NCBI GenBank assembly: GCA_052327205.1
Contig: CM126203.1
Coordinates: forward strand, 94,426,001 to 94,490,000
DNA length: 64,000 nucleotides
Origin: Somniosus microcephalus
Taxonomy: Eukaryota
Reading direction: 5' to 3'
How positions within the stretch are numbered: position 1 is the first letter of the stretch; each line of letters begins with the position of its first letter. A program made the translations under genes and the position numbers. Below the pieces are notes generated by a model that made no database searches, had not been told where the DNA came from, and was given only the letters and a program-made list of their open reading frames with translations. Shown here in pieces: positions 5,369-64,000 of this stretch.

Positions 5369-6967
5369 ATGGAGCGATATCTTCAACCAGAACGATTCAA
5401 TGCTGACCCTAATTCTGCAGGAGTGGATGATAAATGGAAACACTGGTATTGTACATTTTAAAACTTTTTGGGCGTGTTGGATCAAGAGTCTCTAAATAAG
5501 CTGAATATGCTGATCAGCTACATTGCTCCGGATGTGTATAAGTATATTTTGGACTGTAAAACTTACGAAGTGGCTATTTCTACATTGGAAAAGATTTTTG
5601 TTAAACCAAAGAATGAGGTATTTGCACGTCACCTTCTATCTGCCCGTAGGCAGCAGGTGGGAGAATCTTTGGATACTTATTTACAAGCACTTCGGTGCCT
5701 TAGTGTTAACTGTAATTATAAGGCCGTGACGGCTGAAGAATATAAGGAAGAATCGGTACGGGATGCTTTTATTAATGGATTACTGTCTAGATCAATTCGT
5801 CAGCATTTGTTAGAAAATAAGACTTTGGATCTTAAGAGTGCTTTTGAGCAAGCTTCTACATTGGATGTGGCTCAGAGAAGTTCGGATTCTTATGCTCTTT
5901 TTAATCGGCCTGTGACTGTGGTTTCGGCAGTTCCGGATGAAAAGGAATTATGTGGACTTAATAGGAGTGGTTTACTAGATTCTGAAACAGTTTCTACTTC
6001 AGCGGCTGTTGCCTCTAGGATTCAGAAGTGTTATTTTTGTGGGAACGTCCGGCACCCTCGTCTGAAGTGTCCTGCTTGGGAGGCTGTGTGTAGTAAATGC
6101 GGCAAGAGAGGTCATTACGCACGTGTGTGTAAATCATCAGGTTCAATTACCTCCTCTGTGACTATTCAGCCTTTAGATAGGGTGTTTATTGCATCAATTT
6201 CTGCTGCATTTGCTCATGGCCTAAACAAAGCTATAGTTACAGCCCAAGTTAATGGGTTGGAAGTGAAGGCCCTTATAGATACGGGCAGTACCGAGAGTTT
6301 TATAAGTCTTCAGTTTGCAAAGGAGAAGCATTTGAAAATTTCGCCTGTTTCCTATCAGGTGTGTATGGCTCAGACGACTCTCACTTCACAAGTAGCTGGT
6401 TGTTGCCTTGTGAAATTGATTCTTCTAGGTAATACGTATACTGATATACGCCTATCTGTTTTGCCTAATCTCTGTGCGGATATTTTGATTGGTCATGATG
6501 TGCTTCAGTTACACGAGTCTCTTAGTCTTTCATTTGGAGGGACTAAGCCACCTTTATCTATTTGTGGATTAACCTCTTTATCCATTTCTCCATTATCACT
6601 TTTTTCCAATTTGATGCCGGATTGTAAGCCAATTGCTACCAAGTCAAGAAGGTATAGCAGTCAGGATAGAGAATTTATTAATTCTGAAGTTCAACGTCTC
6701 TTATTGGAAGGAATCATTGAACCTAGTTGTTCGCCTTGGCGGGCACAGGTAGTTGTCACGACTAACGAGAGACATAAGAAACGAATGGTGATAGACTATT
6801 CCCAAACTATTAATAGGTATACTCAATTAGATATGTACCCTTTGCCTAAGATTGATCAGCTTATCAATAAAGTATCTCAGTATAAGGTTTTTAGCACTAT
6901 TGACTTAAAGAGTGCTTATCATCAGATTCCTATTGTTAAGAAGGATCAACCATATACGGCCTTTGAA
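5369..6967 (+). pseudogene. Element A gag-protease-RT N-terminal half
   Basis: ATG 5369 (MERYLQPERFNADP), premature TAA 5459-5461, two CCHC knuckles, LIDTGS protease, RT start (SPWRAQ, IDLKSAYHQ), cut at ...TAFE. Confidence 0.9.
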
Positions 6968-9900
6968 CATAAGAACATAAGAACATAAGAAATAGGAGCA
7001 GGAGTAGGCCAATCGGCCCCTCGAGCCTGCTCCACCATTCAATAAGATCATGGCTGATCTGATCCTAACCTCAAATCTTCTATCACTCTGCATCCACCCG
7101 AACCCATGTGATCTCCCGGGAGAGGCGAAAAACCAGATAAAGACCCAATGGCCAATTTGGGAGAAAAAAATCTGGGAAATTCCTCTCCGACCCATCTAGG
7201 CGATCGAAATTCTTCCAGGAGATCACTCTGTCCCTATATTTTCTACAGTACTTACCTTCTGTAAAGGCGATCTCCACCCCAGCCAGGAACAGGAATAAAA
7301 CCATCTCCTGAAATCTAACACAGAATTAGAACACAGTAGGAGCAGAACAAGGCTACACAGCCCCTGGGCCCACTCCACTACCCACAGGGCCATGACCATT
7401 CCGAACCTAGACTCATGTCCAATTTCCTGCCCGCTCCCCGTAACCCTTAATTCCCTTTACTTCTAGGAAACTATCTATTTCTGTTTTAAATTTATTTAAT
7501 GATGTAGCTTCCACAGCTTTCTGGGGCAGCAAATTCCACAAACCTACCACCCTCTGAGTGAAGAAGTTTCTCCTCATCTCAGTTTTGAATGAGCAGCCCC
7601 TTATTTTAAGATTATGCCCCCTAGTTCTAGTTTCACCCATCATTGGGAACATCCTCACCGCATCCACCCGATCAAGCCCCTTCACAATCTTATATGTTTC
7701 AATAAGATCGCCTCTCATTCTTCTGAACTCCAATGAGTAGAGTCCCAATCTACTCAACCTCTCCTCATATGACCACCCCCTCATCCCCGGGATTAACCGA
7801 GTGAACCTTCTTTGTACTGACTCGAGAGCAAGTATGTCTTTTCTTAAGTATGGACACCAAAACTGTATGCAGTATTCCAGGTGCGGTCTCACCAATACCT
7901 TGTACAACTGCAGCAATACCTCCCTGTTTTTATATTCCATCCCCCTAGCAATAAAAGCCAACATTCCATTGGCCTTCTTAATCACTTGCTGCACCTGCAT
8001 ACTAACCTTTTGAGTTTCGTGCACCAGGACCCCCAGATCCCTTTGTACTACAGTACTTTCCAGTTTCTTGCCATTAAGATAATAACTTGCTCTATGATTT
8101 TTCCTGCCAAAGTGCATAACCTCACACTTTCCAGTATTGTATTCCATCTGCCAAATCTCTGCCCACTTACTTAGCCTGTCTATGTCCCTTTGCAGGTTTT
8201 TTATGTCCTCCTCACTCACTACTTTCCGTCCCATCTTTGTATCATCTGCAAACTTTGATATGTTACACTCGGTCCCCTCCTCCAAATCGTTAATATAGAT
8301 TGTAAAGAGTTGGGGACCCAGCACTGACCCCTGCGGAACACCACTAGTTACTGGTTGCCAATCTGAGAACGAACCATTAATCCCAACTCTCTGCTTTCTG
8401 TTAGAGAGCCAATCCTCCACCCACGCCAGAATATTACCCCCAATCCCGTGATTTTTTATCTTGAGCAATAATCTTTTGTGTGGCACCTTGTCAAATGCCT
8501 TTTGGAAGTCTAAATACACTACGTCCACTGGTTCCCCTTTATCCACCCTGTATGTTACTTCCTCAAAAAACTCAAGCAAATTTGTCAAACATGACTTCCC
8601 CTTCATGAAACCATGCTGAGTTTGTCCTATTAAATTATGTTTATCCAAATGTCCCGTTACTGTCTCCTTAATAATGGACTCTAACATTTTACCAACCACA
8701 GATGTTAGGCTAACAGGTCTATAGTTTCCAGCCTTCTGCCTACTACCCTTTTTAAATAAGGGTGTTACATTAGCAGTTTTCCAATCTGCCGGGACCTTTG
8801 CTGAGTCCAGTGAGTTTTGGAAAATTATTACCAATGCATCCACAATCCCTACCGCTACTTCCCTCAAGACCCTAGGATGCAAGCCATCAGGTCCAGGGGA
8901 TTTATCCGCCTTGAGTCCCATTATTTTACCAAGTACCACTTCCTTAGTGATTTTAATCGTATTTAGTTCCTCCCCCCTAGAGCCCCCTGTTTGTCCAGTG
9001 TTGGGATATTCTTAGTGTCCTCTGCTGTAAAGACTGATACAAAATAATTGTTCAGCGTTTTTGCCATCTCCATGTTTCCCACCATTAATTTCCCGGTCTC
9101 ATCCTCTAAGGGACCAACATTTACTTTAGCCACCCTTTTTCTTTTTATATAACTATAAAAACTTTTACTGTCTGTTTTTATATTTTTTGCTAATTTACTT
9201 TCATAATCTATCTTCCCTTTCTTAATCAATCTTTTAGTTATTTTTTGCTGTCTTTTAAAGACTTCCCAATCTTCCATCCTCCCACTAGATTTGGCTACCT
9301 TATATGCCCTTGTTTTTAGTCGGATACTATCCTTAATTACTTTACTTAGCCACGGATGGCTATCTTTTCTTTTACACCCTTTATTCCTCAGTGGAATATA
9401 TTTTTTTTGGAAGTTGTAAAATAACTCCTTAAATGTACACCACTGGTCATGTACCGTCTTACCCTTTAATCTATTTTCCGCTCTCATACATTCATAGTCT
9501 CCTTTATTCAAGCTCAGCACGCTTGTTTGAGATCCAACCTTCTCACCCTCTAATTGAATATGGAACTCAACCATGTTATGGTCACTCATTCCAAGGGGAT
9601 CCTTTACTAGGACATTTTTAATTAATCCTGTCTCATTACACAGGACCAAATCTAAGGTTGCTTGCCCCCTGGTCGGTTCAGTTACATACTGCTCAAGAAA
9701 CCCATCCCTAATACACTCAATGAACTCATCCTCAAGGCTGCTCTGCCCAATTTGATTTGTCCAGTTAATATGATAATTAAAATCCCCCATAATTATAGCT
9801 GTTCCCTTATTACAAGCCTCAACTATTTCCTGATTAATACTCCGTCCAACAGAGTTGCAACTGTTCGGAGGCCTATAGACTACACCCACTAGTGTTTTTT

Positions 9901-10206
9901 TCCCCTTATTATTCCTTATCTCCACCCAAACTGTTTCACTATCCTGCTCCTTTGACCCAATATCATTTCTCTGTATTATAGTGATTCCTTCCTTTATTAA
10001 CATAGCCACCCCACCTCCTCTCCCTTCCTGCCTGTCCTTCCTGATTGTTAAATAACCTGGTATGTTTAATTCCCAGTCATGGTCACCCTGCAGCCATGTT
10101 TCTGTAATGGCCACAAGATCATACCCATATGTCATTATTTGTGCCGCTAACTCATTCATTTTGTTACGAATGCTACGTGCATTCAGATAAAGAACTTTCA
10201 AATATG
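6968..10206 (-). mobile_element. 5'-truncated CR1 LINE (CR1-B) inserted in the RT of element A
   Basis: (GAACATAA)3 tail from 6965 with GAA microhomology; joining 6967 to 10207 restores in-frame TAFE-AGGKLYQF (cf. TAFKANGRLYQF in element C). No TSD. Confidence 0.92.
7413..10200 (-). pseudogene. CR1-B ORF2 (endonuclease + RT) with a frameshift near 8960
   Basis: ORF 8963-10243 (YLNARS, AITETW, MGDFN, SDH) and ORF 7413-8939 (PQGSVLGP, FADD). Confidence 0.92.
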
Positions 10207-12312
10207 GCTGGTGGAAAGCTGTATCAGTTTTGCCGAATACCATTTGGTGTTACTAATGGTGTTGCTTGTTTTCAACGGGCAATGGATGCTTTTATAAGTG
10301 ATAACTCTCTCTCTGACACCTTTTCATACTTAGATGACATCACGGTGTGTGGCAAATCAAGGGTGGAGCATGATTCTAATTTAGAAAGATTCCTTCAAGC
10401 TGCGGAAAAAGTTGGTTTAACTTTCAATAAAGAGAAGTGTACCTTTTCGACCACTGAGGTAAATCTACTGGGGTACATTATCTCGGGAAACAAGATTAAA
10501 CCAGACCCAGAATGCCTGCGACCATTGATTGATTTACCTTGTCCTACTAATTCTAAGGCTTTGCAACGAGTTGTTGGACTGTTTTCTTACTATTCTAATT
10601 GGATTGCAAATTTTTCACAGAAGATCCAGCCTCTTATTCGGGTTACGACATATCCTCTATCATGGGAGGCCAGGACGTGTTTTGATAATTTTAAAAAGGA
10701 TATCCTTGGAGCAGTTGTGCATTCTATTGATGAGCAGGTTCCTTTTGTGATTGAGATGGACGCTTCTGATTTTGCAATTGGGGCTACTCTGAACCAAAAT
10801 GGAAGACCTGTGGCCTTTTTCTCACGTACCTTGAACAATAGTGAAAAAAGGCATTCTTCAATAGAGAAAGAGGCGTATGCAATAGTAGAAGCACTGCGTA
10901 AATGGAGACATTATTTATCGGGGCGACATTTTACGTTGGTAACTGATCAAAAGTCTGTGTCCTTTATGTTTGATGTCAAACATTTTGGAAAGATTAAGAA
11001 TGATAAAATAATGAGGTGGAGGATTGAGTTGGCATGTTACCATTTTGATATAGTTTATCGTCCGGGGAAGGATAATGTTGCTGCTGATGCGCTGTCGAGG
11101 GCTTATTGTTCTGTGATTCACGGAGATACGCTTATTAATCTTCACAATGCCTTATGCCATCCTGGGGTTACGAGGATGATACACTTCGTACGCAGTAAGA
11201 ATTTGCCCTTTTCAGTTGAAGACGTCAAGCGGATGACTTCATCATGTTCTATCTGTGCTCGGTGTAAACCGAATTTCTTTAAGCCTCAACGAGCTCATCT
11301 TATAAAGGCTACTTCTCCTTTTGAACGTTTGAGCGTCGATTTTAAGGGGCCTCTTCCTTCAACTACTCAAAACCGATATATATTTACTGTTGTGGATGAG
11401 TTTTCAAGGTTCCCTTTTGCTTTTCCTTGCGCAGATGTATCAGCTGCTACAGTTATCAAATGTCTGACTCAACTTTTTGTCATCTTTGGGATGCCTGCGT
11501 ATATCCATTCGGATCAGGGAAGTTCTTTTATGTCTTCCCAGTTGAAGGAATACCTTCAGAGTCGGGGAATTTCGACTAGCAGAACTACCCCGTATAATCC
11601 CCAGGGTAATGGACAGTGCGAACGATACAATGGGGTGATCTGGAAGGCAGTTATGTTGGCTTTGACATCCCGGAACCTTAAGAATACACAGTGGGAAATG
11701 GTACTGCCTGATGCCCTGCATTCCATTAGATTATTGCTTTCAACGGCTACTAATGTGACCCCCCATGAAAGGCTCTTTAACTATCCACGGAGATCTACTA
11801 CGGGATATTCGGTACCTTCATGGCTTACTATGCAGGGACCTGTGCCGCTTCGACGCCATGTTAGATTGTCAAAATATGATCCTTTAGTGGAGGAGGTGGA
11901 GCTGTTGGAGGCAAATTCCCAATATGCTCATATTCGATTCCAAGATGGGAAAGAAAGTACCGTTTCAATTAAAGACTTGGCTCCTTGTGGTGGCCAGCCC
12001 TCTTCTGAGGATATTAACAATAGTCATGATTCAGATAATGTGGATGCTGTTACAGATACTACGAATATTTCCAATCCGACTGCAGATAATTATACTTCTA
12101 TTAGTCAGCCCTCGATGGATGTTCATGACCGTCCCAGTTTACCTCCTGATGGGATTTCTAATCCGGAAACCGTTGAAAATCGGGATATGGGTAGCCTTCC
12201 TGCAGAAGATACTTCTGTGTCTCGTGGTGTGTGAGGGCAAGGAATTTCACCAAGGTTAAGAAGGTCGATACGAACAAGATATCCGGTCGACCGATTGAAA
12301 ATGGACTTTTAA
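10207..12312 (+). pseudogene. Element A RT-RNaseH-integrase C-terminal half
   Basis: YLDD, DASD, KEAYA, HHCC, DDE core; in-frame TGA at 12232-12234, after which the frame continues to the family tail LRRSIRTRYPVDRLKMDF* (12312). Confidence 0.92.
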
Positions 12313-38005: not shown

Positions 38006-40059
38006 CAGGAAAGATTGAGCAGACTGGGGCTCTTTACTCCAGAAGAGGGAGGACTAAGAGGAGACGTGCATGTAACTTGTATTATTTACATATCTCAACA
38101 ACTTGTGTGATGACACGCTAAAGTGATATACGCATATATCTCAGGATCTATTTTACAGTACCAAGTTCTTTCAAGACAGTGATGACTTGTGGTGAGTTCA
38201 GCAGTTAGACCAAATTCAAAATCAATAAATCATACTGGGAGAAATCAACTTAGTCAATTTACATTATATTTTTATTCAGGCCTTTTAGGAAAATCCTGAT
38301 GGATCCAATGCATTTAAAACCACATTGATAATTTTGAGTATACTGACAAACATAGCAACATGTGAAATAGATGTGTAGAATAATTTTAAATATGTATTGA
38401 AGAAAAAAATATAGCTGAACATTGGAAAATTTAGAGTAAATTCAGTAAATTTCACCAGATTGAATTAAATTAATGGGAACATAATATCTGATGGGGTCTA
38501 ATGAATCAAAGGTTTGCCAAATAAATGGTTGCTGCTGGCATCCCTATTCTCTCACAGAAAACATTTTCACAGTAGTACAGCTTTGCTAACCTTTGCATTA
38601 GATCGGGAAAAACACTTTTTCTGAGTTTTAATGATACAAATAAAAACTGATTTTTAAAATGATTTTCTCTGAATTTCCCCAGTTATTTTGAGGTCCAATT
38701 TTTACTCCCTAATTTTCTCCTGGTTTTTGAATCTAAAAATAAAACCTGAAAACACTCAAAAACATGTTTTTAAATTGGCAATAAAAACTGACTAATGGTC
38801 CTTATTTGTAACAAATTAAATCATTTACAAAAATAATGAAGTGTTTAACTGATGAATTTTTCTTACAAATACATGGATTTTTTTTTATAACTTTAAATTC
38901 TGATTGAATCCAGTGCTGCCGACTTGGTTGTTCCTCTCCCTTATTTAGGTAGAAGGCAAACACAGTGAGAAAATGAGCCTAGTAAGCTTCTGCAGCCCTT
39001 CTGAAAACAAAACTGAGGACAAACAAACAAACCTATTTCTTATGTGATAGTTTGATTACCTCATCACAAAAATTACTGTGGAGAATGTGTTTTTTAATAC
39101 AGCAAAGTACTATCTTACTTTGAGTATTTTCTGTAAGATTGAATATGTCAAGTGCAATACAATACAAAACCACTTTGGAATGAAGAACCACGCTATCAAG
39201 CACAGTTAGCGATGTTTGTGAAATAGGCTCCATAGCCAATGCAAACTGACGGCCACATTTGTTGCATGCCCTTTGTTGTCCATTTCCTGACTCTTGCTGG
39301 TTGACATTTCTATAAAGATTCTTTTCTTCTGCTGTTAACACTTGAAACTGAATCAGTTATTGTTTATAGATATTCATAATATCAGTATCTCACTTTTGTG
39401 TAATTAATCTTGCATTAACTTTAATAATTGAACTGTACGGGCTGATAACATGGTGTTTTCCTGCCTTTCAAAGAGCACAGGAGTGCATGGTGGGTAACCC
39501 CTGCAACCTCTGGGGCAAAATAGTTTTGTAAAAGGATTATAATGTGCTACTACTTGTTAAGTCTGTGAATTATTTAGTTAATTAAAACAGACTAATGAGT
39601 AACAATAAAAACAGGTCTTTACTGGTTGGAGGTAGGGACTATACTGAATACAAGATTACTGCACAGTGCTTATATACCGGTGTGTTCACCCCCGGTATTA
39701 CGTCTACAGCAGCCTGAGAAAGTAGTACATCTCTTAAGGTGGAACAGGCTTAAGCTCTCTTAAGGTGGAACAGGTTACATACACAACACTCCTCCCTTCT
39801 TAGCTTTATAGTCATCCCCCCCATTTAACATAACGTAATAACATATATACATATATAACTTCATGTTTAACGTAACATATCACAGATTCAGTCTCTGCGG
39901 AAAACAGTTCACAGATTCAATCTCTGTGGTGTAGTCGGTTCACGTTACTCATTCAATAGTCCTTTCATGGATTTAACAGCTTGAACTTCCGAACTGATTT
40001 GGCTCCGTTCGGAGGGACCACGTGTGTGATCTGGTAGAGGTGATAATGGTTCAGATGGG

Positions 40060-42348
40060 TCATCTTCTGTTTTTACTTTTCCTTTTCTGCTTCTTGGAGA
40101 CTCTCTGGGCTCCATTGTCAGCTGCCACAGCTGCCAGCTGCATGCGCAGTTCCTCCTTCTCTTCCTCCTGTTTCCGTCGTAGAGCCAGCTTCTCCCGATG
40201 TTCCGTAGACTTTTGGTGCTCCTCCATGATTTCTGCACTTTGGGAGTCGAAGTTACAAGCTGGGCAGGACAGGACATCGTAATATTCGGTGTCGTCCACC
40301 AGGTCATGGTAATATTCGGTGTCGTCCTGAGCTAGACCAGTGAGAGGGTCGTCTATTTCCTCCATACCCAGCTGGACGTTAGCCAGCTCTTGTTCCAAAT
40401 CCAGACATCTTTCCTGAAGAGACTTCTTCATGTGTACCTCTGCATCCAGCTTTTTCTGGGCTTTCAGCAAGTCGTTTACTAGTGACCTCATTTGTGATTT
40501 TAATACTTCAACTTCCTTTGGAGATTGATCGATCGGACTATGCAATCCCTCTACCGGAGCAGCTGTTTCAGCGGTCTGTTGTTCTACATTGACGTGAGTC
40601 AGCGTACTTTTGGCATCCAATGGCTGCTCTGTTGCAGTCGTTTCAGTCTGTGTCGTCACATCAGCCATCTCAATGACTTTTGAGAGCTCCGAACCCTTTT
40701 CCTTTGAAGATCGCAGCTCGTGTTCAAGTTTTTCCCATTTCAGAGTCTTGTCCCTCAGCATATGGAGTTGGCTGACCGTTAACTCTTCTGACACCAGATT
40801 ATGGCACGCACCTTCAGAACCTGAATCAGCTTTGATTCGTTCGGCCTCCTCGCGCAGATGGTTGGTGTGCTCCTGCTCCATTTTCTCCATCAGTTGCTTC
40901 TGTTGACTTTCCAGATTCTCCCACTCTGTAACAAAGAACTTTTTTATTTCATTCATCTCTTGCTCAAAACGGCGAATCATTTGTTCTAATTGCTGTTGTA
41001 GTTTGAAATGGAGTTGAGTTCGAGCCCAGTGTCCCTCAAAAATGTGCATATCAGTAGACTTGACAGACTCAGAATTCTCTGTTAAACTATGTTGTTGTTG
41101 CTCAGTGGAATTCTGTGCTGAAACTTTGTCTTTTGCACATGGGTTGGTCTTACCATCATCAGTTCTAGAGTCTGGGCTGATTATCTGCACCGAGTTCTCA
41201 CTCTTTATGGCTTTTAGCGAATGCCAGTCCATATTTATGTTTCTAAACCACTCCCGGCCTAGTAGTGGTGGACCTCCCTCCGGTAGCACATATAAGTCCA
41301 TTATTTGACTTCCTTCGCCCTTGTTGGCCACTGCAACCTTTACTGTCCCGATGGGGTACACTCTCTGCCCCGTGTAGGTTGTCAATATAATCTCCGTATC
41401 CTGTAGGGGAATATGTTGGAATAACCTTCTGTAATCTTTCTTATTCATGACCGACAATGCCGATCCAGTGTCCAATTCCATTTTTACTTGGACTCCTTCT
41501 ATCTGAAGAGTAACCCAAATTGTCTGGAGGTCTGCACCCTTACCAACGTTGAGTACCCTTAAGCTAGCCAGTTCAATACTGCTTGCGTCTGAATCGGACT
41601 CCTGTTCGGCCACCTTGTGTACCTTTGCGTATTTCCCTTGCGGTGACTTCTTGTTGCTGGTCTTCTTCGCTGACCTGCATACTCTAGCTATATGTCCAAG
41701 CCTTCCACAAGTTCTACATTCTTGGTTTTTAAACCAACACTGGTTCTGATCATGCGTTGTCTTTCCACAACGATAACATTTGCCAGAACTCACACCCAAT
41801 TTGTGTGCACTGAGCTCCGGTGACCGTAGCTGCATTACTGCCGTGCCTCTCGCTGCGGCTTCGTGTGCTGCTGCCATAGTGACCACCTTCTCAAGCGTCA
41901 GCTCATTCTCCTCGAGCAGTCGCTTTTGTGTATCCTGTTTAAATAAACCACACACAAATTTGTCTCGAAGTGCCTCTGTCAGTCCCGTTCCAAACTGGCA
42001 ATATTTCGCTAATTTACGCAATTCCAGCAAATATTCAGCATTGCTTTCATGCTGTAGCTGCCTTCTGTCGTAAAATTTAAATCGTTCCGCTAGCATCAGC
42101 GGTGTGGGGTTTAGATGATCTTTCAGGACAGTAACAATCTCATCGAACGTCTTATCCGCCGGTTCATCTGGTGATAACAGGTGTTTCAATTGCCCGTATG
42201 TCTTCGCACCCATTAAATTTAATAATGTTAGAGCTTTATCTTGGTCACGAATTTTATTGGCCTTACAATAATTTTTTACTCTTTCAACATATATGGCCCA
42301 ATCTTCGAGGTCACTATCAAAGGTGCTAATATTCCCGTGTTTAGGCAT
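40060..42348 (-). CDS. 762-aa Gag-protease fused to STK10/SLK-like, optineurin-like and DNAJC21-like segments
   Basis: aa1-225 Gag with two CCHC, aa275-378 protease (ELDTGS, LLGREW), aa439-507 STK10/SLK-like coil, aa508-660 OPTN-like coil, aa~675-762 DNAJC21-like C2H2 finger and basic tail; no stops. Confidence 0.9.
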
Positions 42349-42755
42349 TGTAGATTTGCAATTTCTCAGATTTTATTTTCTTTACTTGTTATCAAAGATG
42401 GCGGCTTCCCGCTCTTGCCGTCGTCCTCCGCCCACAAAATGGCGGTTTTCCCGCACTTGGCGGTCTTCACCCGTCCCCCGACGCCGTCTCCCTTCAGCCC
42501 CCGAGTGCGGCCCTTATCAGCGGATGCGATCGATGGCCCAGCTGCGCCTCGCACTTGAAAGCGGCCCGGCCCTTATCTGCCGATCGCTATCGCCCTATAC
42601 CTCTCTCTTCCCCAGTCCTGTCTTCTACTCCGGTTCACAAGCTGATGGAGGCTTCAGGGTCCTAATGCCTGTCACTTCCAGTGGGGTGGTGAGTGGTGAG
42701 GTTTGAAACCTCTCTTCAACCGCCGTGGAATAACTGCCGCAGGGTAAGAACCTGA

Positions 42756-42765
42756 CTCGTCGCCA
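42756..42765 (-). promoter_or_regulatory. Primer-binding site of element B (tRNA-Ser(GCT) type)
   Basis: TGGCGACGAG one base after the 5' LTR; complementary to the ...CTCGTCGCCA tRNA end. Confidence 0.8.
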
Positions 42766-45700
42766 GTGTTAAGTCTGTGAATTATTTAGTTAATTAAAAC
42801 AGACTAATGAGTAACAATAAAAACAGGTCTTTACTGGTTGGAGGTAGGGACTATACTGAATACAAGATTACTGCACAGTGCTTATATACCGGTGTGTTCA
42901 CCCCCGGTATTACGTCTACAGCAGCCTGAGAAAGTAGTACATCTCTTAAGGTGGAACAGGCTTAAGCTCTCTTAAGGTGGAACAGGTTACATACACAACA
43001 CTACTTCTGTTCACAGCATACATATGGTGCAAGTTTCTGATCATGGAAGGCCTGAGTCTGCCTATGGAAACTGCATTTAGCTGTAAATATGATAGAGTTG
43101 GAGGAGAGCCTGAATTGTTAACATCCATTAATTAAAGGGAGTATGGTATCTGCCCCTCCAACCTCACATGCCACGACTCATTAGCCACATTTAAAGGAGT
43201 TCTGTCCTGGAACATAAACTACCTGTAATTCCCAGGAGAGAATGTGGAGCTAAAACCTCCATTCCAGTCCTTCTCCTTGAACAGCCAACATGCATAGACT
43301 CCAAAGAGATTAGAAGTGACCTGAAACTATCCCATAGATGTACTAACACCTTCAGTCTGGAGAGTCATTTGTTTCTCACTAAATTAATTGCTTTGATATT
43401 TTGCTTTGGACTTTGGAAGCTCATTTTATCTCCGTGAGTCGTAAAGAATCGTCCTTGAGATTGCAATTTCTAATGATGAATGGAAAGCTGTGGGTATCAG
43501 ATTTCTAGGTGACTGTTATCTTTTTGGGTCTTTTACTCTAGGATCACTCTCCTAGGTGAATTCCAACTTCCAGTGCCTTTGGGAATGCCTTCACAGCATT
43601 ATTATCCAGATAAAATGTTTGGTAATGTGCCCAGGGCAGTGAATAAAAACCGTGTCTCTCAGTTCTTCTTAAGCTACTAAAATTCTTTTCCTTCCACCAG
43701 ATCTATCTTCAGTCTATGATAAATAGAATATCATATCCCGACCTCAATTTAACTATAAATTATTATTAAATAAACAAGCAAATAAGTAACAATAATATAA
43801 CATACATATATAATATGTGGAAATGCTATGATCTATCCCCTTAATGGGGAAAATAGTAAAAGGTTGTGAATCTAAATACTAACCTGTATTTCTATAAACA
43901 ACTGTTCTGTACATAGCTCTCCTCTTTCTTGTCTTGTTACAAGCTTTGGGAGCTTAGTTTGTTCGATCTAAGTTTGTTCGATCAACTACACTGAGGACTG
44001 TTCTCCATTTGTTCCTTTTGTGTCTCCTGATCTATTGCCAAAGCTCATTAAAAATTAATAGCTGCCAACCTCATTCAAAAAGCAGCAAGCTACCAATTAT
44101 AACTGGATCAATCATGAAGTCTATATATTTGAAAATCATGTTAGATACCCTCTCAAGTCTTCTACAGGGAAACTATAAAAAAAATTGGAAACATATGTAA
44201 AGAAATAGGTTCAGATTGTAGGTAGCTTTTCAAAATCTGATGTATTGTACCTGATTTAAAAATACAGCTGCCAGACCAAAACAAGACAGTATTCCTTCAT
44301 ATTTGTCACAGTGGCACCTAGTAATCACTTGTGGGAGAGTGAACTTAAAATGTTATACTATATCTATCATCTTGCCAGGTCACCTACACCCAGAGATTGC
44401 TAATATTTTGGGGGGTAATTGTGAAGGGGTCTGCAATTTATTCCACGTCTTCTGGGATTCTCCCATGATTTGGGATATTTTAAGCAATGACCTTGTACAT
44501 ATTAGTGCCAATTCAGGTTTTTTTCAGTTATGATGGAGGAAATGCTGTTTCAAATGAGAAGATTGTAACTTTATATATTTTTTGATAGGATGTGGTCTGG
44601 CACTTGTATTTCTGCATCTGGTGCAAAGCGATCAGTATATAGTTGACATGATATCCTGCATTCATAGGTTTTTTTGGAGGGGGTGGTGGAAATATATATA
44701 ATCATCATGACCAAAGAATAGCTAGAGTATCCTAAGTGGATAGGTGTAAAAAAAGTTTCAGCTTGGTATTCTTACCACTGAACATTTTATTAGGTAGTGA
44801 TTTAAATGACAGTGAAGTTGTAATCACCTTAAATGATAGGGAGGTGGGTAAGACTACAGAAGGAGCCAAGCCCATGCAATATCAATGCAGGTGGCTTTGG
44901 AGGCACCTAGAGATTTTACAGGAGCAGAGGCTTCAGCAACCTAGAAAGACTAGTGGGCAGTTGTTCACAGGCAGAGGACCTGTTGTTGTAACTCTGAGCA
45001 CAGTGTAGGTGTGCAGGATAGCAGCAGGCCACCTGCACAGTGTTACTCATTACGCTGCTGCATATTGTGCACTGAGCAGGTCTGGCAAAGATTCAGCACA
45101 CTGACCTTACACAAGGGATGATGCAATGGCAAGTGGGGGGCTTTGACCTTGTAGCACTGTCCAATCTGTCATAGTCATTTGTCCAGAGAAGATGTTGACA
45201 TCTAATCAGAGAGGACGCATGATTAACAGTTCAATGCTACATCTCATCCAAGACATGGTAACCTTATGTAACTTGCCTACTTGAGAGAAGGGTACGGAGT
45301 CATGTAATTAACACATTAGCTGAGATTAACAGTCCGAGCTTATTGGAAGGCACAGTTGCTCAGTTAGGCAGTGATGAAGTCCGTGCAAAACTTTCAGTAC
45401 TAACACCAGACAAAGCTGGCTATGTGAGGTAATTTGTCTGTGATGGCAGCTGGGCAACAACCAGCCTCCTTACCACACAGTACACAAGACTGACAATTAG
45501 GGGAAGGATAAAATTTGTTACAAAGAAGAAAACAGAGTAGGAGTTAAGGGCAGTTTTGCAGACATGTTGGAAGTGAGTAGCAGTGTCCCACACAATTCAT
45601 GTCTGGAGCCACTTTAGAAAGCTGTGAACAAATCAGGACCTACCTGCAGTGTGAACAAAATGAGACCCTCTTAACACTGAAGAAATAGGTAGGTTTAATG

Positions 45701-53353: not shown

Positions 53354-56300
53354 ATTAGTGGCAGTACACAATAGCGACCGTATCGAATGGAGCACATCTG
53401 GGAGGACTTCCTGCCAGCGGGAGATAGGGAGGCCCTTGGTCCTTAGAGCTAGAGTGACTGCTTTCCATACTGTCCCGTTCTCTCGCTCCACTTGACCGTT
53501 ACCCCGGGGGTTGTAGCTGGTGGTACGGCTTGTGGCGATCCCCCTGGACAGCATGTACTGGCGTAGCTCTTCACTCATGAAGGACGCCCCCCTATCCGTA
53601 TGGATGTAGCTCGGCATACCGAACAGGCAGAACAGGCTGTTGAGGCATTTAATGACCGTGGCGCTGGTCATGTCTCGGCAGGGGAAGGCGAATGGGAAAC
53701 GGAAGTATTCGTCCACAATGTTCAGGAAGTAAACATTGCGGTCGACTGACGGGAGGGGGCCCTTGAAATCTAAGCTGAGCCGCTCAAAGGGCCGTGTAGC
53801 TTTGATTAAGTGGGCTCTATCTGGGCGGTAGAACCGAGGCACTCAGCGCAAGTGCGGCAGTTCCTGGTCAGAGACCGAACTTCCTCAATCGAGTAGGGTA
53901 AGTTGCGGGACTTTATGAAGTGGAACAGCCGTGTGACCCCGGGGTGGCAGAGGTCGTTGTGGAGGGTCTGTAGCCGATCCCCGGTGGTGCTGGCACACAT
54001 CCCTCGTGAGAGGGCATCGGGGGATTCGTTAAGGGCCCCTGGCCGGTAAATGATGTCATAATTGAAGGTGGAGAGCTTGATCCGCCACCTAAGAATCTTA
54101 TCATTTTTAATCTTCCCCCTCTGTTTATTATTGAACATAAACGCTACCGACCACTGGTCGGTAAGTAGGGTGAAGCGTTTGCCGGCTAGGTAGTGCCGCC
54201 AGTGGCGCACTGCCTCCACGATGGCTTGGGCCTCCTTTTCCACGGAGGAGTGTCTGATCTCGGGCCCTTGGAGGGTCCTCAAGAAGAAAGCTACGGGCCG
54301 CCCCGCCTGGTTGAGGGTGGCCACCAAGGCAAAGTCAGCCGCATCACTTTCCACTTGAAAGGGAGTGTTCTCGTCCACTGCCTGTAGCGTGGCCCGCTCA
54401 ATATCCCGCTTAATGCTTTTGAAGGCGGCATGGGCCTCAGCAGAGAACGGAAAAGAGGATGCTTTCAAGAGGGGGCGGGCTTTGTCGGAGTAGTTGGGGA
54501 CCCATTGGGCATAATAAGAAAATAACCCCAGGCACCTTTTCAGGGCTTTGGGAGTGTTGGGCAGGGGCGGCTCCCGTAGGGGGCGCAATCGGTCGGGGTC
54601 TGGTCCAATTTCCCCATTCTCCACCACGCTGCCTAGTATGCAGAGGCGCGTGGTGTTGAAAACGCACTTGTCCTCGTTGTAAGTGAGGTTGAGTTTTTGT
54701 GCGGTTTTCAGGAACCTCTCGAGGTTCGAGTCGTGATCCTGCTGGTTGTGACCGCAGATGGTGACGTTGTCGAGGTAGGGGAAGGTTGCCTGCAAGTGGT
54801 GGTCATCGACCATGCGGTCCATCTCCCTCTGGAAGACCGAGACCCCATTCGTCACCCCAAAGGGGACTCTGAGGAATTGGTAGAGGCGTCCGTTCGCCTT
54901 GAAGGCGGTGTACGGGCGGTCCTCTGGTCTGATAGGGAGCTGGTGGTACGCTGACTTGAGGTCGATGGTGGCGAACACCCGGTATTGGGCGATTTGGTTC
55001 ACCATCTCGGATATGCGGGGTAGCGGGTAGGCGTCTAGCTGGGTGTATAGATTAACTGTCTGGCTATAATCTATCACCATCCGCTTCTTCTCGCTACCCC
55101 TCACCACCACCACTTGGGCGTGCCACGGGCTGTTGCTGCGTTTGATAATGCGCTCCTTCAGGAGCCTGTCTACCTCGGTCGCGATAAACCGCCTGTCCTC
55201 CCAGCTGTACCTCCTGCTTTTGGTCGCTATTGGCCGGCAGTTGGGAGTAAGGTTCGCGAGTAGCGAAGGCGGCTTTACCTTCAGGGTAGCCAGACCGCAC
55301 ACTGTGAGGGGCGGCTGGGACCCACCGTACTTGAGCGTGATGCTTTGGTGGTGGCACTGGAAATCCAGGCCCAAGATCACGCTCGCACATAGATTCTTCA
55401 TGATTAGTAATTTAAAATTATCGTATACAGTTCCGTTAACGGACAATTGTACCGCGCAGTAACCCATAACGGTCGATGTCTGGGTTTTATCAGCCATAGA
55501 GATGGTGCCCCGAGCAGGGACCACCGTTACAGAGAGTTGTTGTGCCAGTTCCAGGTGGATAAAACTCTCCGTGCTTCCACTGTCAAATAAACATTTAACC
55601 CCGCACCCATTTACCTCGATGTCCACCATTGATTTGGATAGCGGGTGCGGTCTGGTCTGGTCCACTGTGACCGATGCCACTGTAGGGCCCTGATCGAGAC
55701 AAGATGGCGTCCACGCTGTCTGCTCACAAGATGGTGGACCCCACGAGGTCGGGCAAGATGGCGTCCAAGATGGCCGCTCCCACGGCGCACACGCGGCGGT
55801 GGCGGGTTTTCCAGCGGGGTTCCCTCTGCACACCTTCCCGAAGTGCCCCTTCTTACCGCACTTAAAGCAGGTGGTGCCTTTCGCCGGGCACAGGTTTCTG
55901 GTGTGCTTCGGCTGCCCGCAGAAGTAGCAGTTGGGGCCCCGACGCGTCGCGGCTGTCGTAGGGCTTCTGGGGGGAGAGCGGGGCCCCGATGGTGTCGGGC
56001 TGCCGGGCGGGGAAGATGCCTTCCAAGATGGCAGCGCCCTTGGTGCACACGTGGCGGCGTGGGCGGCGCGGGCTGAAGAGTAGGCGTCCGAGTTTCTCTG
56101 GGCCACATCCAGGGATCGCGCTGTGTCCACAGCCTGTTTCAGGTCCAATCCCGTTTTTTCCAGTAATCTCTGCCGGATGTAAGTGGAGCTGAGGCCTGTG
56201 ATAAAGGCATCACGAACAAGCTCGTCAGTGTACACTGCGGCTTTTACATCTTGGCACTTGCAGTCTTTGCCAAGCGTTTTCAGGGTGACTAGGAACTCAT

Positions 56301-56622
56301 CCAGCGATTCCCCAGGTCGCTGTGCGTGACTAGCGAGCAGATGCCTAGCGTACACCTCGTTCATAGGCTGCTGGTAATGCGCCTTTAGGATGTCGCAGGC
56401 GGCCGAGTACGTGTCGGCGTCTTGGATGAGGGGGTAAACCCGGTGGCTTACCCAATTCCGCAGGATTCCGAGTTTCATACTTTCAGCGTCCGTAGCGCCT
56501 GTGATGGCTGCGGAATTGTCCAGGAAGAATTCCATACACTTAAACCAGTGTCCGAATCGTGCCGATGCATCCGAAGCATGCGGGTCCAAATCCAAACGTT
56601 TGGGTTTCAAGAGTTGGTCCAT
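53354..56622 (-). pseudogene. Element C gag-pol (frameshift near 53840)
   Basis: ATG 56622 MDQLLKPKRL; two CCHC, LFDSGS, YLDN, RNase H, HHCC, integrase core in ORF 53324-53842. Confidence 0.92.
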
Positions 56623-56942: not shown

Positions 56943-59900
56943 CTAGAGCCAGCGCAGCCTGTTTATCTGTGTTCTCTCCGATACGATGAGTGGAAAAGAC
57001 CCCTTTTGGAGATGGAGGTGGAGAAGGAGAAGGTGACGAGGACCTATCTGTTAGACACGGGGGCATCATGCACCATGGTCTACTCAGCTAACCCCACCAC
57101 CTCACCTCTCTCCAACGGGGTCCCATACAGTCTATCGGGGTTCACGGGTAGGGAACAGGCTGGCTCGTTTTCCATCCCGCTCACCATTCGGTTAGGACCG
57201 CTCCGCTCCAAGTGGACCTGTGTCCTGATGAAATGGGACGTGGAGGGTGGAAGAGTGGTCCTGGGGGCCGACTTTATTGTAGGCCATGGGATCCTAGTGG
57301 ATTTGAGGAATCACTGCCTTTGGGGGGCAGGTAAAGTAAAGAACGGAGAGGTCGTAGTAATCCCGGGAAAGGAAGGGAAGGGGACACTCTGCACCATGAA
57401 GCCCAAAGAGGATTATAACCTCGGGCTCATGGTCAGCAACACCCCACCAGAATTCCAGGCATTTGTGCAGGCCCACCTGGCCACATTTGCCACTCACAAG
57501 CACGACTGCGGGAGGGTCACAGGGTTTGAGGTCAGCATAGACGGGAACCCTGTGGCCCGACCACAGAAACAATATAACTTCCCCAGGGAAGCAGAGCCGG
57601 ACATGGAAGCAGCCATGTCCTCGTTAGTGCAGCAGGGAGTTCTGAGACCGATAGCTACCCACGTGAATTCTCCATTATGGCCGGTCAGAAAGCCGGACAA
57701 TTCCTGGAGGGCCACGGTGGATTATCGAGTGCTCAATAGTAACATCACAGCCTGCGCACCCACAGTAACAGCAGTTGCCGACCTCATCGGGAGTATTCCA
57801 GCATCCGCGACCACTTTCACGGTGCTGGATATTTCAAATGGGTTTTGGTCCATCCCTGTAAGGAGGGAGGATCAGTACACGTTTGCCTTTACGTTTAAGG
57901 AGCAACAGTACACATGGAACTGTTTGCCTCAGGGCTTCCACAACAGCCCCAGCATTTTCCATCAGTGCATGGCCAACAGTTTGAAGGATTTTAGCCAGCC
58001 CAGACAGTTGGTTCAATATGTGGATGACCTGCTCCTGTTCACTGATTTGAAAGAGGAGCATGGTCCGCTATTGGCCGAACTGCTGGAGCTGTTAGGGCAG
58101 AAGAGTTTCAAAGTAAACCCCAAGAAAGCGCAGATCGGCCAGCAGGAGGTGAAATTCCTCAGTCTGACCGTGTGCACTGGAGAAAGGGCCATAGATAAGG
58201 CTAGGAAGGAGGCGGTACAAGAACTACCGGTCCCTAACACAGTAACGGGTGTGAGGTCGTTTCTAGGGCTAACCGGGTACTGCAGAGACATTATTGAGGA
58301 CTATGCAGCCACCGCAGCCCCTCTGCTCCGACTCCTACACAAGGGAGTGGAGTGGCTTTGGGATGAGGGTTGCCAGGCAGCATTTGTCAGGCTCAAGAAA
58401 GACTTGCAGACCGCGCCAGCTTTAGGGGCCATAGATGGGGGGAAAGAGTTTTTCCTGGAGGTAGCAGCCAGCGGGGACAGCCTGAGTGCTGTGCTGCTCC
58501 AAGAGCGGCACGGCCGGCTGCGGCTGGTGGTCTACTCCTCTGGGATACTCACAGATGTGGAAAGGAGCTATTCCAATTGTGAGCGGCATCTTTTGGCCAC
58601 ACATTGGGCTGTGAAAAGATCATTGATCTTCACAGGCACCTCTCCCATCACCCTCCTCACCCATCACACACCTACCCAGATGCTTCTGGACGGGAGGATC
58701 AAGGATGGGACAGTGAGCAGTGCCCGCATTGCCCGCTGGACTTTGCTCCTCTCACAGATGGATCTAAAGGTGAAGGGTCTCTGTGAGCCAAGGCTTGCAG
58801 CCAACATGGTATATCCTGGAACAGCCCACTGTTCCATTGAAGGGGTTTGGGAAGTAAACACAGGTTTACGGGCCGGGATACATCCCACAGGCTGCGAAAT
58901 CTATGTAGACGGTTCCAGCACGGTATCTGCTGGCGAGCATCTCACGGGGTGTGGGGTTTACGACCCAGCGCAAACATTGCCTTGGCGATTAAGCTCCCCA
59001 GCACCATGAGCGCCCAGCAGGCTGAACTGTCTGCGGTGGTGTACGTTGTTACACACCCCGAAATCTTCCCCACCCCCTATGCGATTTGCTCGGACAGCAT
59101 GTTCACGTGCAATTCATGTACGGAGTACCTGGCCATCTGGTCCCGCCGCGGATACACCTCCGCTAACGGGAGACCCCTCACAGTAAAACCCCTGCTGGAA
59201 AAGATCCTGGCAGCAGTGGGGGAGGAAGGGGAGGTTTTCATCCACAAGGTGAAGGCCCATTCCTCCACAGAACCCCGCGGCCAAGGCAACCAGCAGGCTG
59301 ACTTGCTCGCCAAGGAGGGTGCCCGCACAGGCACTTTCTGGGACCCATTTGGGTCCAGACCCATGGCGGCGGTCAGAGGTAGGGACGGGACCCAAGGGAG
59401 TGTAGGGGTAGCATTAGCCCCGGACCTAAAGACGGTCCAAGCCGAAGACCCTGTCCTAAAAGCAGTCCTCAGCGCTGTAGCTGCGGGAAATGGAGTAGAA
59501 GGTCCGTATGGCACAGCGACCCTCTCCGTTAAAGAGGGCATGCTGTTCCGGGGGGAACAGTGGGTTGTGCCGCAGCAGCACCGGAGGGAATTCCTTCAAC
59601 TGGCCAATGAGGGTCCAGGAGCGGGACACCCCAGGCCTGAGACCACCTGGCAACAGGTGGAACAGGCGGGATGGTGGCCGGGACTCAGGGACGATGTCCA
59701 TGAATTCTGTGCAGGCTGTCTTGTGTGCGCTGCGAACAACCCCGACCCCCACAAAAGGAAAGTCCCTATGGGACACGTCAGGAGGGTAGAGGAACCATGG
59801 CAGTCGATACAAGTCGACTACATTGGGCCCCTGCCCACCGCCCAGGGAGGCTATAAGTACTGCCTAGTCCTGGTGGACGTGTTTACCAAGTGGGTAGAGG

Positions 59901-61150
59901 CCTTTCCCTGCAGAACAGCCACAGCTCTGGGTACTGCCAGGAACCTGGTCCGGGAAGTGTTCTCGAGGTGGGGAGTACCACAGTATGTGGAGTCCGACCA
60001 AGGGAGTCACTTCACCGGACAGGTGATGCAGAACACCCTGATGCTGCTAGGCATTGAAGGGAAATGGCACATGGCCCACAACCCCCAGTCATTGTGGATT
60101 GTAGAACGCATGAATCGGACCCTGAAAGAAAGCTTAAGAAAGGAAACGGTGGACTCGCCCCGTAAATGGGCCGAGGTCCTACTGTTGGTTTTGATGGGGA
60201 TCCGGGCCAGCTAGTCTAAAAGCATGGGGTATTCCCCGTACGAGCTAATAACTAGCAGGGTTATGCGGACCCCTACCCATGTACTAGCCCCGGTGCTCAC
60301 GGAGGGTCAACTCAGGGAGGTAAACCAGGACAGACAGGTTTGCCCGAAACCTCTTTGAGCACCTGAAGCAGGTCCATGAGCAGGCGGCTGGAAACATGGA
60401 AGGCAGCATCGGAGTAACCGATTGCTGCTCGAACCCAGAAAGCACCATGAGTGGGAGGTAGGAGATCAGGTCATGGTAAGAAACTATGCCCGAGTAGGGA
60501 GTTTGGAGCCATTGTACATGGGGCCCTACAGCATTGTAGATAAAGCCAGCCCCATGGTATACGCCGTGAAGATGCCCCGGTGTACAAAATGGTTTCATAT
60601 CAACCAGTGTAAGCTGTTTACACCTGAAAGGGGAAAACAGCCAGTTGGGAAAAGGGCTGAGGATAAAGATCCTCAGCCTGCAGCAGGAGCGAGTTCACAG
60701 ACTGCACAGGCAGGCGCTGTGGCTTGCTTAAAGGGAGGGGCCATCCCGTCCATTGATTGGGACACTCCCCCACTCTTCTGGGATCCAGACGAGGGGAAGG
60801 GACCTGAGGGCGAAAACCCCGCCCCTAACCCAGGTGTAGAGAGGGAGGGACCTGAGGTCGAAAACCCCGCCTCGGACCCAGCCATGGGACCTGGGGGCGG
60901 AGGCTCTCAGCTCGCAGCAGCAGGCTGCGAAAAGTTACCTGCCCCCAGCCCAGGTTTGGGAGGGGTCAAGCCTGAGGGAGCAGCGGTTCGGGTTAAAGGC
61001 CCAGCGGCCAAGAAAGCCCCACCCGTCAAGGCCCCCAGAAGGTCCCCACGGACGCCCCAGCCGAGAAAGCCATGGTCACCTGCCCTCCAGTTATCAAGGG
61101 CCGCCCTTGAGCTAGGGAAGGGCCCAAGGACAGAGGTCCTCAGCCAGTAG
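56943..61150 (+). pseudogene. Element D pol: PR-RT-RH1-RH2-IN with frameshifts/stops
   Basis: LLDTGA, NSPLWPVRKPD, LDISNGF, LPQGF, YVDD, CERHLLA (degenerate RH), IYVDGSS/SAQQAEL/SDS/KVKAH/GNQQAD, IQVDYIGP, SDQGSHF, GPY. Confidence 0.92.
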
Positions 61151-61516: not shown

Positions 61517-64000
61517 TGTTGTGTCGGTACCTTTTTACCTAGACACAATTCGAACTCAGAACTCAGAGATTCAAACATGAAGTGCTTTATTCGAAGGGAA
61601 AAGGAAGTTCTGGAGAGTTCCGAACAAAGAGAGCTAAACTTAACCAAGAGAACACCCAACCATTTATCTGCTGTGACAGCGCCACCACAGGTGGGAGGAG
61701 AACACACAATACATAACTTATTCCTCCCCTCTTAAATGGAAGGTCCACATTATTCCTCAACAGGTAAGTTACTTTCAATGCACTCAACGAACCTAGGGTA
61801 GAGGTAGACTGCCTCAACCCCTGACTTTACCCTGGGGTTTATTCTGCCCCAGTCTTGTGGGTAAGTCGCTAAGCCTACAGATCCAAGCATCTTGGAGTCC
61901 GCCGCTCTCTGACAGGATACCGGCGATCATCGCTGGCTTCCACAGCAGTAGGCATTGACACAGGCCTAGATGGAGAAGGTGCCTGTGTCAGTCGAAAGTC
62001 AGGAGCTTGCACAGGTGGAACAGTCTCTTTGACTTCCTGTGTTGGAGAACAGCACTGTGGCAAAGGATGCTGGTTTGCAGTATCATCTGGAAACAGTTCA
62101 GGCCAACCAGCCGTTGGAGCCTCTGTGGCTGTCTCTGCTCCTAGCAACAGTTGATCTGTGTGTCTTCTCCAGACGACGTCCTCAGCAGTCTCAACCATGT
62201 AAGACACAGGGCCCGTCTGCGCGATCACCGTAGCAGGAACCCATTTCGGTCCAGTGTTGTAGTTTCGAGCTAGGACGTGCTCTCCCGGATGAAACCGTCT
62301 CTCCTTGGCTCTTTTCTCTCTCTTTTCAACTTGAGCTTGTTGTTGACGATGGACAATCTGCTCTGCCCTTGGAGGTTTGAATAAGTCAAAACTTCTCCGC
62401 AACTGCCTCTTCATCATGAGCGAAGCGGGGGAAGTTTTCGTTGTGGCATGCGGCTCGTTCCTGTAGGACAACAGGAAGCTGTTCAGACATTGGTGGATTG
62501 AGCCCTGACCTTGCGATGCGTTCATGGCGTGCTTCAAAGTTTGCACAAACCTTTCCACCTGGCCGTTAGTAGAGGGATGATAGGGCGCAGACCTGATGTG
62601 TTGGACACCATTCACATGCAGGAAGGTTGCAAACTCCTGTGATACAAATTGTGGACCGTTGTCACTTACGAGTTCCGGTGAGCCATAACGGCTGAACATC
62701 TCACCAAGTTTCTCAATTGTTTTCTCTGCCGTGGTAGACCTCATCACAGCGACCTCCGGCCACTTGCTACGAGCGTCTACAACCACCATAAACATCTTCT
62801 GTTCGAAAGGACCGGCGAAGTCCACATGTACTCCCTGCCACACTTCTGCAGGCCAATCCCAGGGGTGTAGGGTTGCCAGCTATGGAACATTCCGGACCCT
62901 TTGACATGGGGAACATGTTTTGGCTTTCTCCTCAATATTCCCATCGAGACCTGGCCACCAGAAGTAGCTTCTTGCCATTTCCTTCATCCGAACCATCCCA
63001 CTGTGGCCTGTATGAAGTTGTTGCAGTATAGGTTCCCTCAGAGGTGGCGGAATGATGACACGGCGTCCCCAAAGAAGACAAACTGCCTGGGCGGAGAGCT
63101 CATTTCTTTTTGAAACATAAGGTTTCAAACTAGGAGAATCTCCTATAGCTCTCCCTCAAATGACATTGTCGATTACCTCAGACAGGGCTGGATCGTTGCG
63201 GGTGTACCTTCGCACCTGAACTGCAGTGACAGGTGCTCCCTCCACTTGTCTAAAGTAGAAGATGTCTATCTGACGAGGCTCTGGGGGAGTAACAGGCAAG
63301 GGTAGCCTCGAGAGACCGTCTGCGTTGCCGTGCAAGTCTGATTTGCGATATTTGATGTCGTATGTGTGTCCTGACCACCTTTGCATCCTGCTTGCAGCGA
63401 GAGACGGAATTCCGGTGTGGGGCCTGAAGATTGAAGTCAATGGATGGTGGTCCGTCAGGAGTGTGAACCTTCTCCCAAACAGGTACTGATGAAATTTTCG
63501 AATTCCAAAAACGATTCCCAAGGCCTCGCGCTCGATCTGCGCATAGTTACTCTCGGCCTTGTTCAAGGTGCGTGATGCGAAGGCGATAGGTTTCTCTTCA
63601 CCCGAAGGCATGATGTGGGATATGACTGCTCCCACACCATATGGTGATGCATCACATACTAGCTGCATGGGTAGCTTTGGGTCGAAGTGTGTCAGGGCCT
63701 CCGATTTCAGCAATGCTTTCTTTGCTTGGGCGAAAGCTTCGTTGCACAGTTCAGTCCATTTCCATGTTTTGCCTTGACATAGCAACTGATGTAACGGCTT
63801 CAGCAATGTTGCTAAGTCTGGAATAAACTTCCCATAGTAGTTAAGTAGCCCCAGAAATGAACGTAACTGGCTCACATTCTGGGGTGCTGGGGCCTCCACG
63901 ATCGCCTTGACCTTTGACGGCGCCTTATGCAGGCCAGTAGCGTCAATCACATGCCCCAGGTACTCAACTGAAGACTGAAAGAATTTACATTTGTCTTTAT
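61517..64000 (-). mobile_element. Mag-like Gypsy element E, 3' part (3' LTR ~61517-61720), runs off the window
   Basis: ORFs 63156-63950 (RT end, CDASPYG RNase H), 62880-63128 (HHCC), 61875-62843 (VDFAGPF, SDNGPQF); PPT AAGAGGGGAGGAA 61733-61721; AATAAA 61591-61586. LTR boundaries inferred. Confidence 0.88.

Follow-up and report, generated by a model that had tools for sequence, protein, structure and literature searches.

The 64,000 nt stretch of DNA analyzed here (positions 94,426,001–94,490,000 of contig CM126203.1 from Somniosus microcephalus; hereafter, the window) contains at positions 39555–43000 a non-autonomous Ty3/gypsy element, with all its internal features on the minus strand. 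The element is flanked by the target-site duplication CTACT (43001–43005 and 39550–39554) and bounded by two identical LTRs, the 5′ LTR (42767–43000; 234 nt, TG...CA) and its 3′ pair (39555–39788). Next to these are a primer-binding site, TGGCGACGAG (42756–42765), whose first 9 nt are common to the autonomous parent described below and whose primer we take to be a serine tRNA, and a polypurine tract (39789–39801) nearly the same as that of the parent. The LTR pair, the target duplication, the primer site, the purine tract and a parent with PR-RT-RH-IN order place the element among the non-autonomous derivatives of the Ty3/gypsy group, and Pfam found neither a reverse transcriptase (RT) nor an integrase in its ORF. 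The window consists almost entirely of retroelements, with more gypsy-like pol ORFs and several LINE-like ORFs (61875–63998, 53806–56622, 5507–12234, and 57012–61150); the ORF at 61875–63998 is 52% identical to the Pol of the parent, and a run of N at about 28.7–29.7 kb, either a gap or a withheld stretch, results in spurious ORFs.

The single ORF of the element (762 aa, 40060–42348) runs from Gag and protease through STK10, optineurin and a DNAJC21 finger to a basic tail. Two Gag CCHC zinc knuckles (aa 188–225, 41674–41787) and an aspartic protease with a DTG motif (aa 279–369, 41242–41514; E = 7e-5) are recognizable, all of them under the Pfam curated cut-offs. Behind them lie two pieces of STK10 exon 9, at 41126–41204 (93.7% identical to the host gene) and, after an in-frame deletion, at 41033–41129 (90.7%); STK10 exons 11–12, with the first half of a PKK repeat (40826–41037, 90.1%), which a 414 nt deletion has brought next to exon 9; a coiled-coil region of optineurin (40355–40834), spliced and with an internal deletion; and a DNAJC21-derived block with a basic tail (40069–40354), whose C2H2 finger is at about 40195–40269. 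A remnant of STK10 exons 8–9 occurs out of order at 39948–40068, mostly behind the stop codon, and is a vestige of the permuted capture described below.

A preliminary description of this DNA had proposed that an STK10/SLK coiled-coil fragment of the PKK type was captured at 41034–40828 (aa 439–507 of the ORF at 42348–40060), without the kinase domain, and both proposals hold. The Pfam family PKK (PF12474) matched the ORF with 48.3 bits (E = 1.4e-12, cut-off 25) over profile positions 1–58 of 139, which is part of one repeat only; the other 11 families that Pfam listed for the ORF had E values of 0.01 or worse, and no kinase family was found by Pfam in the ORF or in its longer relatives. The position in the protein was also right, although the peptide quoted for it begins six residues further in, and the block is not the first piece of cargo in the ORF, as two more STK10 pieces lie upstream of it at 41204–41033. 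Eight of the 14 candidates from a protein search passed, and these were six named shark STK10 proteins, one shark "hypothetical protein" and one unnamed protein. None was named SLK.

The STK10 gene of the same genome is on contig C8, where exons 2–18, in a numbering that presupposes one additional coding exon upstream, were each found once in 100 kb. Its exons 11 and 12 are identical to the block in 186 of 207 nt and 57 of 69 aa, and the block spans the exon 11/12 splice junction (40951/40950) without the intron. By manual count, the first 27 residues share 24 positions with STK10 and 16 with two paralogous loci, which we presume, in a naming of our own, to be SLK-like. These data identify STK10 as the donor and a spliced RNA as the template, and we regard the derivation of the block from STK10 as virtually certain. 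That the match is to SLK or reflects a generic coiled-coil likeness, as the 16 residues common to the SLK-like paralogs might suggest, can be dismissed in view of the 24 of 27 residues and 186 of 207 nt shared with STK10 and of the non-coiled-coil STK10 linker also present beside the block. The block has the sequence and frame of the STK10 (LOK)/SLK kinases (PF12474), its source, but is not a member of that family: it lacks the N-terminal STE20 kinase domain, retains an incomplete paired PKK region (58 of 139 positions) and is fused into a retrotransposon polyprotein. In intron 7 of STK10 there is a distant Gag-PR relative (L051:1177–2455; about 54% aa) that adjoins captured exons.

As for the other cargo, a protein search with the optineurin region gave 27 matches, all named optineurin, the best one, from a shark, at 69% aa identity. 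The DNAJC21 origin of the finger block rests on a protein search with a less altered relative (L074), for which the 120 listed matches were all of the DNAJC21 type (best, a shark DNAJC21 at 69%). Three queries did not find the host DNAJC21 gene in the genome, in which element-borne pieces are abundant: the exons returned by PF21884 belong to another gene, the whole protein retrieved, with a stricter filter, largely element-like matches, and a conserved stretch from its middle retrieved nothing. A PDB sequence search with aa 384–762 gave no matches, and a HMMER search with representatives gave 60, all unnamed except for one optineurin.

The autonomous parent family is abundant and has a single Gag-PR-RT-RH-IN ORF of 1,317 aa (1,316–1,322 aa in ten copies fetched), its PR-RT-RH-IN domain order being that given by Pfam for one copy, L097, to which the Gag-PR of the window element is 74% identical. 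A genome search with the STK10 sequence missing from the window revealed a second family, with 98 matches, mostly intronless, and one intron-containing STK10 locus. We read the founding capture from 12 fetched loci of this family (stage A). In all 11 full copies the insert measures 1,259 nt; it starts in the middle of exon 9, continues through exons 10, 11 and 12 into exon 8 (12|8) and ends at the same point of exon 9. This amounts to one turn of a 1,245 nt circle of exons 8–12 plus 14 nt, with 98.8–99.1% identity to the host exons; the twelfth copy is internally deleted and keeps the exon 12|8 junction. This joint falls precisely at the GT donor of exon 12 and the AG acceptor of exon 8, which have only AG in common, and its 30 nt are exact in eight of the 12 copies and one base off in the other four. 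An independent run, X19, also contains this junction. The length of the circle is a multiple of three and it is free of stops, so that the insert remains in frame. The window copy has lost the non-colinear joint at true splice sites and retains the permuted order alone; its STK10 block is what is left of a circularly permuted capture of exons 8–12.

The insert replaces 2,666 nt of the parent pol gene in eight of nine measurable loci (2,663 nt in the other). At the entry point the parent matches the circle in 10/10 loci, with the 12 nt word TATTGGATGAGG exact in nine of them; at the exit the match, seen in 9/10 loci, is to GATGAG from the same word (6 nt exact, 7 of 8). Random junctions between parent and circle had matches of at least 6 nt with a frequency of 0.0022, and of at least 12 nt in none of 200,000 trials. 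The insert is limited to exons 8–12, with parent sequence on both flanks and no poly(A) tail. Spliced host exons thus replace part of an internal ORF, with microsimilarity at the switch points, as laid out for LTR-mediated retrocopies in the accessible text of PMC5131818, and the window element is a member of this class. We are accordingly highly confident that STK10 was captured by LTR template switching.

Entry and exit at one and the same word would yield nothing from a normal mRNA and exactly one turn from a circle, and the scar makes a circular STK10 RNA the very probable template. The only other template that would explain the single word equally well is a linear RNA with repeated exons 8–12, produced by trans-splicing or from a lost tandem duplication allele and copied with the same two template switches. 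Such an RNA would leave a scar identical to that of the circle. No inverted repeats were detected at E 1e-5 between STK10 introns 7 and 12, nor complementarity in nine intron pairs, so that the complementary flanking repeats of a circularizing transcript were not found either. Additionally, no circRNA read is among the joints listed: the back-splice joint is not one of the 15 listed for two RNA runs (1,786 fall outside these), in which host STK10 was barely covered, and the run for which it is listed, X19, is probably DNA, labeled as another organism and with introns about 99% alike. Against repeated exons, however, each exon occurs once at the host locus and the genome search retrieved one intron-containing STK10 locus; the two longest of 10 introns measured are intron 7 (15.5 kb) and intron 12 (8.0 kb, in which a cassette exon lies), and long introns are common beside back-spliced exons, while linear exon-repeat RNAs are much rarer than circRNAs. 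We therefore consider the linear template distinctly unlikely. Two separate mRNA captures (exons 9–12, then 8–9) whose permuted order arose by chance are strongly disfavored and highly improbable in spite of the repeated captures through microhomology in this lineage, because the 12|8 joint coincides precisely with a donor and an acceptor that have no more than AG in common, all other junctions examined fall within exons and show 4–12 nt of homology, and the insert begins and ends within 14 nt of the same point.

The closest parallel to the circular capture is found among the mouse circRFWD2 pseudogenes, with 33 high-confidence copies, MMERVK10C-int in the figure legends and a mechanism called "mysterious" (PMC4897178). 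Both cases have a non-colinear exon junction in the genome, many copies, LTR sequence alongside and no poly(A). The mouse copies are treated there as pseudogenes; in the shark, by contrast, one can resolve the parent, the two switch points and the whole single turn, the reading frame of Gag-protease continues through the insert, and captures went on in the lineage afterwards. It is established that LTR elements capture spliced host RNA by way of microsimilarity (PMC5131818), and the accessible text of that work also describes, as here, the replacement of part of an internal ORF by spliced mRNA with microsimilarity at the junctions, multi-gene chimeras, in-frame cargo and further rounds of retroposition; a graded series of coexisting stages, several with at least 150 copies, distinguishes the shark family from the animal cases presented in that text. 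Likewise, maize Bs1 is an LTR element in which three host-gene segments form a new chimeric reading frame (PMC13317346, PMC7264820), but these sources, in the portions available, mention no circRNA template for this plant element. Transduced ORFs, unlike the shark family, occur in one or few copies according to the portion of PMC7264820 at hand. Our literature search, which covered few subscription papers, found no report of this shark family, of any one-turn capture with its two switch points, of "circSTK10" or of a retrotransposon with captured optineurin.

Nested shared junctions suggest the order of the later stages, several of which have at least 150 copies each. The 12|8 junction peptide is identical at 150/150 places among the matches listed, and in nine of the ten loci returned with it some 414 nt are missing between exons 9 and 11, at a homology of 4 nt. 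The optineurin sequence that is missing from the window retrieved at least 150 rows; of 18 optineurin-carrying loci fetched, seven contain STK10 and optineurin, and 11 contain these plus the DNAJC21 finger. In L082, six spliced optineurin exons stand in place of the back-splice junction, in frame and with homologies of 9 and 7 nt; the later junctions in general have microhomologies of 4–9 nt and keep the frame. A comparison of L082 with L107–L108 places this capture from 8 nt inside one exon to a few nt before the end of the sixth, and a capture of nearly six whole exons could also stem from a circle, although no reversed junction was seen for optineurin. In the host optineurin exons of L108 (G000:C17, about 85.885 Mb), as assembled, a stretch of 25 nt of coding sequence contains two extra bases in short runs; they break the frame and are probably assembly errors. 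A motif that we take to be LIR-like is kept in stages B and C (L073–L090) and deleted in the window form, which has additional in-frame deletions with respect to the earlier stages and a 16 nt insertion near its end, which leads into the frame of DNAJC21 itself, so that the ORF stops on the basic tail. One stage C copy (L083:2026–6225) reads in frame into a LINE-like endonuclease/RT, in a frame of 1,400 aa that is probably a nested insertion. Four loci (L130–L133) carry a second DNAJC21 finger, strongly diverged, that retains all four ligands and has a basic tail to itself; this two-finger subfamily, with at least 150 matches, has the chimeric optineurin/STK10/DNAJC21 joint, which indicates an origin within the element lineage and not a fresh host capture.

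The Gag-PR of the window element is far from that of the parent (dS 0.62), whereas its cargo lies nearer to the host genes (dS 0.16–0.19). The Gag/LTR backbone therefore probably came by exchange from a sister lineage, which a search with the protease of the window element did not reveal among the 150 matches listed. The element still agrees with the parent in its LTR ends, its primer site and its purine tract. None of the 150 matches listed for this protease, with frames of up to 838 aa, is an autonomous element, so that the helper is a presumed one. The dispersed young copies and the shared cis signals suggest that the element is mobilized in trans.

The peptide of the block is identical at 150/150 places among the matches listed. 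A protease query had 93 of the 150 rows listed on contig C1 (manual count), from which we roughly extrapolate some 1,300 copies in total, provided that the list for this contig is complete. Both LTRs were found in 19 of 20 fetched copies and had 0–3 differences over up to 237 aligned positions, indicating that the family is very young. Two window-type copies (L009 and L010) are 3.2 kb apart on C11, head to tail, and apparently have one LTR in common.

We compared the host locus L047 with the reads of four of the 24 listed runs. At site 6785, the allele of the elements (present in 55 of 58 copies, the other three not being aligned) was found in 330/336 and 300/301 reads of the RNA runs X23 and X24, respectively, and was absent from run X22. 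A joint variant present in 21/21 window-type copies and 0/37 others was found in 157 reads of X23, and the first mates of the joint were 178 to 4 on one strand, which points to sense transcription if the library is stranded as usual. On L047, X23 covered the element exons mostly on one strand and X24 on both, by reason of either antisense transcripts or another library type. Depth at an exon 11 site was 976 and 341 reads in X23 and X24, and the mean depth of the bin for exon 10, which is missing from the deleted forms, was 0.24 and 2.35. The elements are thus transcribed, and their reads outnumber those of host STK10. In X22, the STK10 locus is about 5% different and exon depth is like intron depth, so that this organism seems to be without these families; given this apparent absence (depth being no copy number), the capture would postdate the split from the X22 organism. 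The cargo would then have changed at several times the rate of host DNA, in keeping with numerous rounds of copying.

With a counting method (transition weight 3), dN/dS was 0.23–0.27 for Gag-PR (p below 1e-15), 0.57–0.59 for the cargo against two stage C copies (p 0.04–0.06) and 0.64 for cargo changes in the window lineage (p 0.085); constraint on the cargo is weak and of borderline significance. In 59 copies compared, five of seven shared indels are in frame, the other two canceling out in equal copy number, as against 5/13 of the private ones; the frame is open for at least 740 aa in 44 of the 57 copies that span the ORF, with 20 of the 59 hand-chosen, mostly for long frames. The finger accumulated 21 non-synonymous and two synonymous changes over two comparisons, an amino acid excess with p 0.016 against the other cargo that is not significant against neutrality (two-sided p 0.14). 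All four zinc ligands are unchanged despite 16 replacements in the 23 residues of the finger (P 0.047 with even rates; 0.007 including the second finger), and Lys plus Arg in the last 20 residues went from six in the parent to 9–11 in later stages, via different sequences. These patterns suggest, at about even odds and as the weakest part of our interpretation, that the open frame, the terminal finger and the basic tail are selected, with the coiled coils being largely spacer.

Two other reasons for the persistence of the cargo appear unlikely, and equally so. The coiled coils could be a functional decoy that, once released by the protease, binds host partners of ERM-kinase or autophagy pathways and shields the particle; native reading frames are indeed preserved across nearly all junctions, cargo dN/dS is below 1 and element transcripts outnumber host STK10. 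Nevertheless, deletions took most of STK10 and half of the PKK repeat, 86 optineurin codons including the presumed LIR-like motif are gone from the most recent form, dN/dS for the window-lineage cargo is 0.64 (p 0.085), and the native frames are simply the stop-free ones too. Alternatively, the cargo could act as camouflage at the RNA level, with host-gene sequence raising the cost to the host of silencing the element. The elements are transcribed and 90–99% identical to three host mRNAs, and such a model was proposed for maize in the portion of bioRxiv 10.1101/777037 available, in which, however, capturing elements show no copy-number gain; moreover, the window form has drifted 10% from the host, eroding cross-targeting, and the retained zinc ligands would be left unexplained.

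Our best overall explanation, which we hold to be likely, is that the STK10 block is cargo of a non-autonomous Ty3/gypsy lineage founded by the one-turn capture of a circRNA. In an autonomous parent, one permuted turn of STK10 exons 8–12 took the place of 2,666 nt of pol. A back-spliced STK10 circRNA would have been packaged in the particle of the element, and host circRNAs are packaged by retroviral Gag according to the accessible part of bioRxiv 10.64898/2026.01.21.700838. The reverse transcriptase would have jumped onto the circRNA at a short word common to the integrase end, gone once round, met the word again and jumped back at the 12 nt match behind the protease. The later steps are represented by a series of extant copies and probably followed in this order: the 414 nt in-frame deletion, the arrival of six spliced optineurin exons in place of the back-splice junction, a further deletion, insertion of the DNAJC21 zinc finger, and more trimming with a probable change of Gag/LTR backbone, resulting in the window form. 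This element would move with its own Gag and protease and with RT and integrase borrowed from the parent family. Its coiled-coil cargo may be mainly an open-frame spacer and its zinc finger and basic tail may be selected at the protein level, again at about even odds, in which case they would most likely give the Gag polyprotein an additional module for RNA binding or nuclear targeting.

The work that described circRNA-derived pseudogenes did not settle how circRNAs return to genomes (PMC4897178). The shark family preserves the two switch points together with the parent and the donor gene, and from it one would expect a searchable scar consisting of permuted exons that start and end on one short word inside an LTR element. 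It is also a living exon-shuffling series in a vertebrate, with intermediate stages still extant, and element-borne host exons outnumber host transcripts and could affect the regulation of STK10, optineurin or DNAJC21. More tentatively, and with less than even confidence, the lineage may have built a new working accessory protein, with a coiled coil, a zinc finger and a basic tail, from one circRNA and two mRNAs, and this protein may still be undergoing change under selection, one subfamily having duplicated the finger; the reverse transcriptase would copy packaged circRNAs for one turn by template switching. If this were so, the founding event would be a base-resolved record of an LTR reverse transcriptase copying a packaged circRNA for a single turn.
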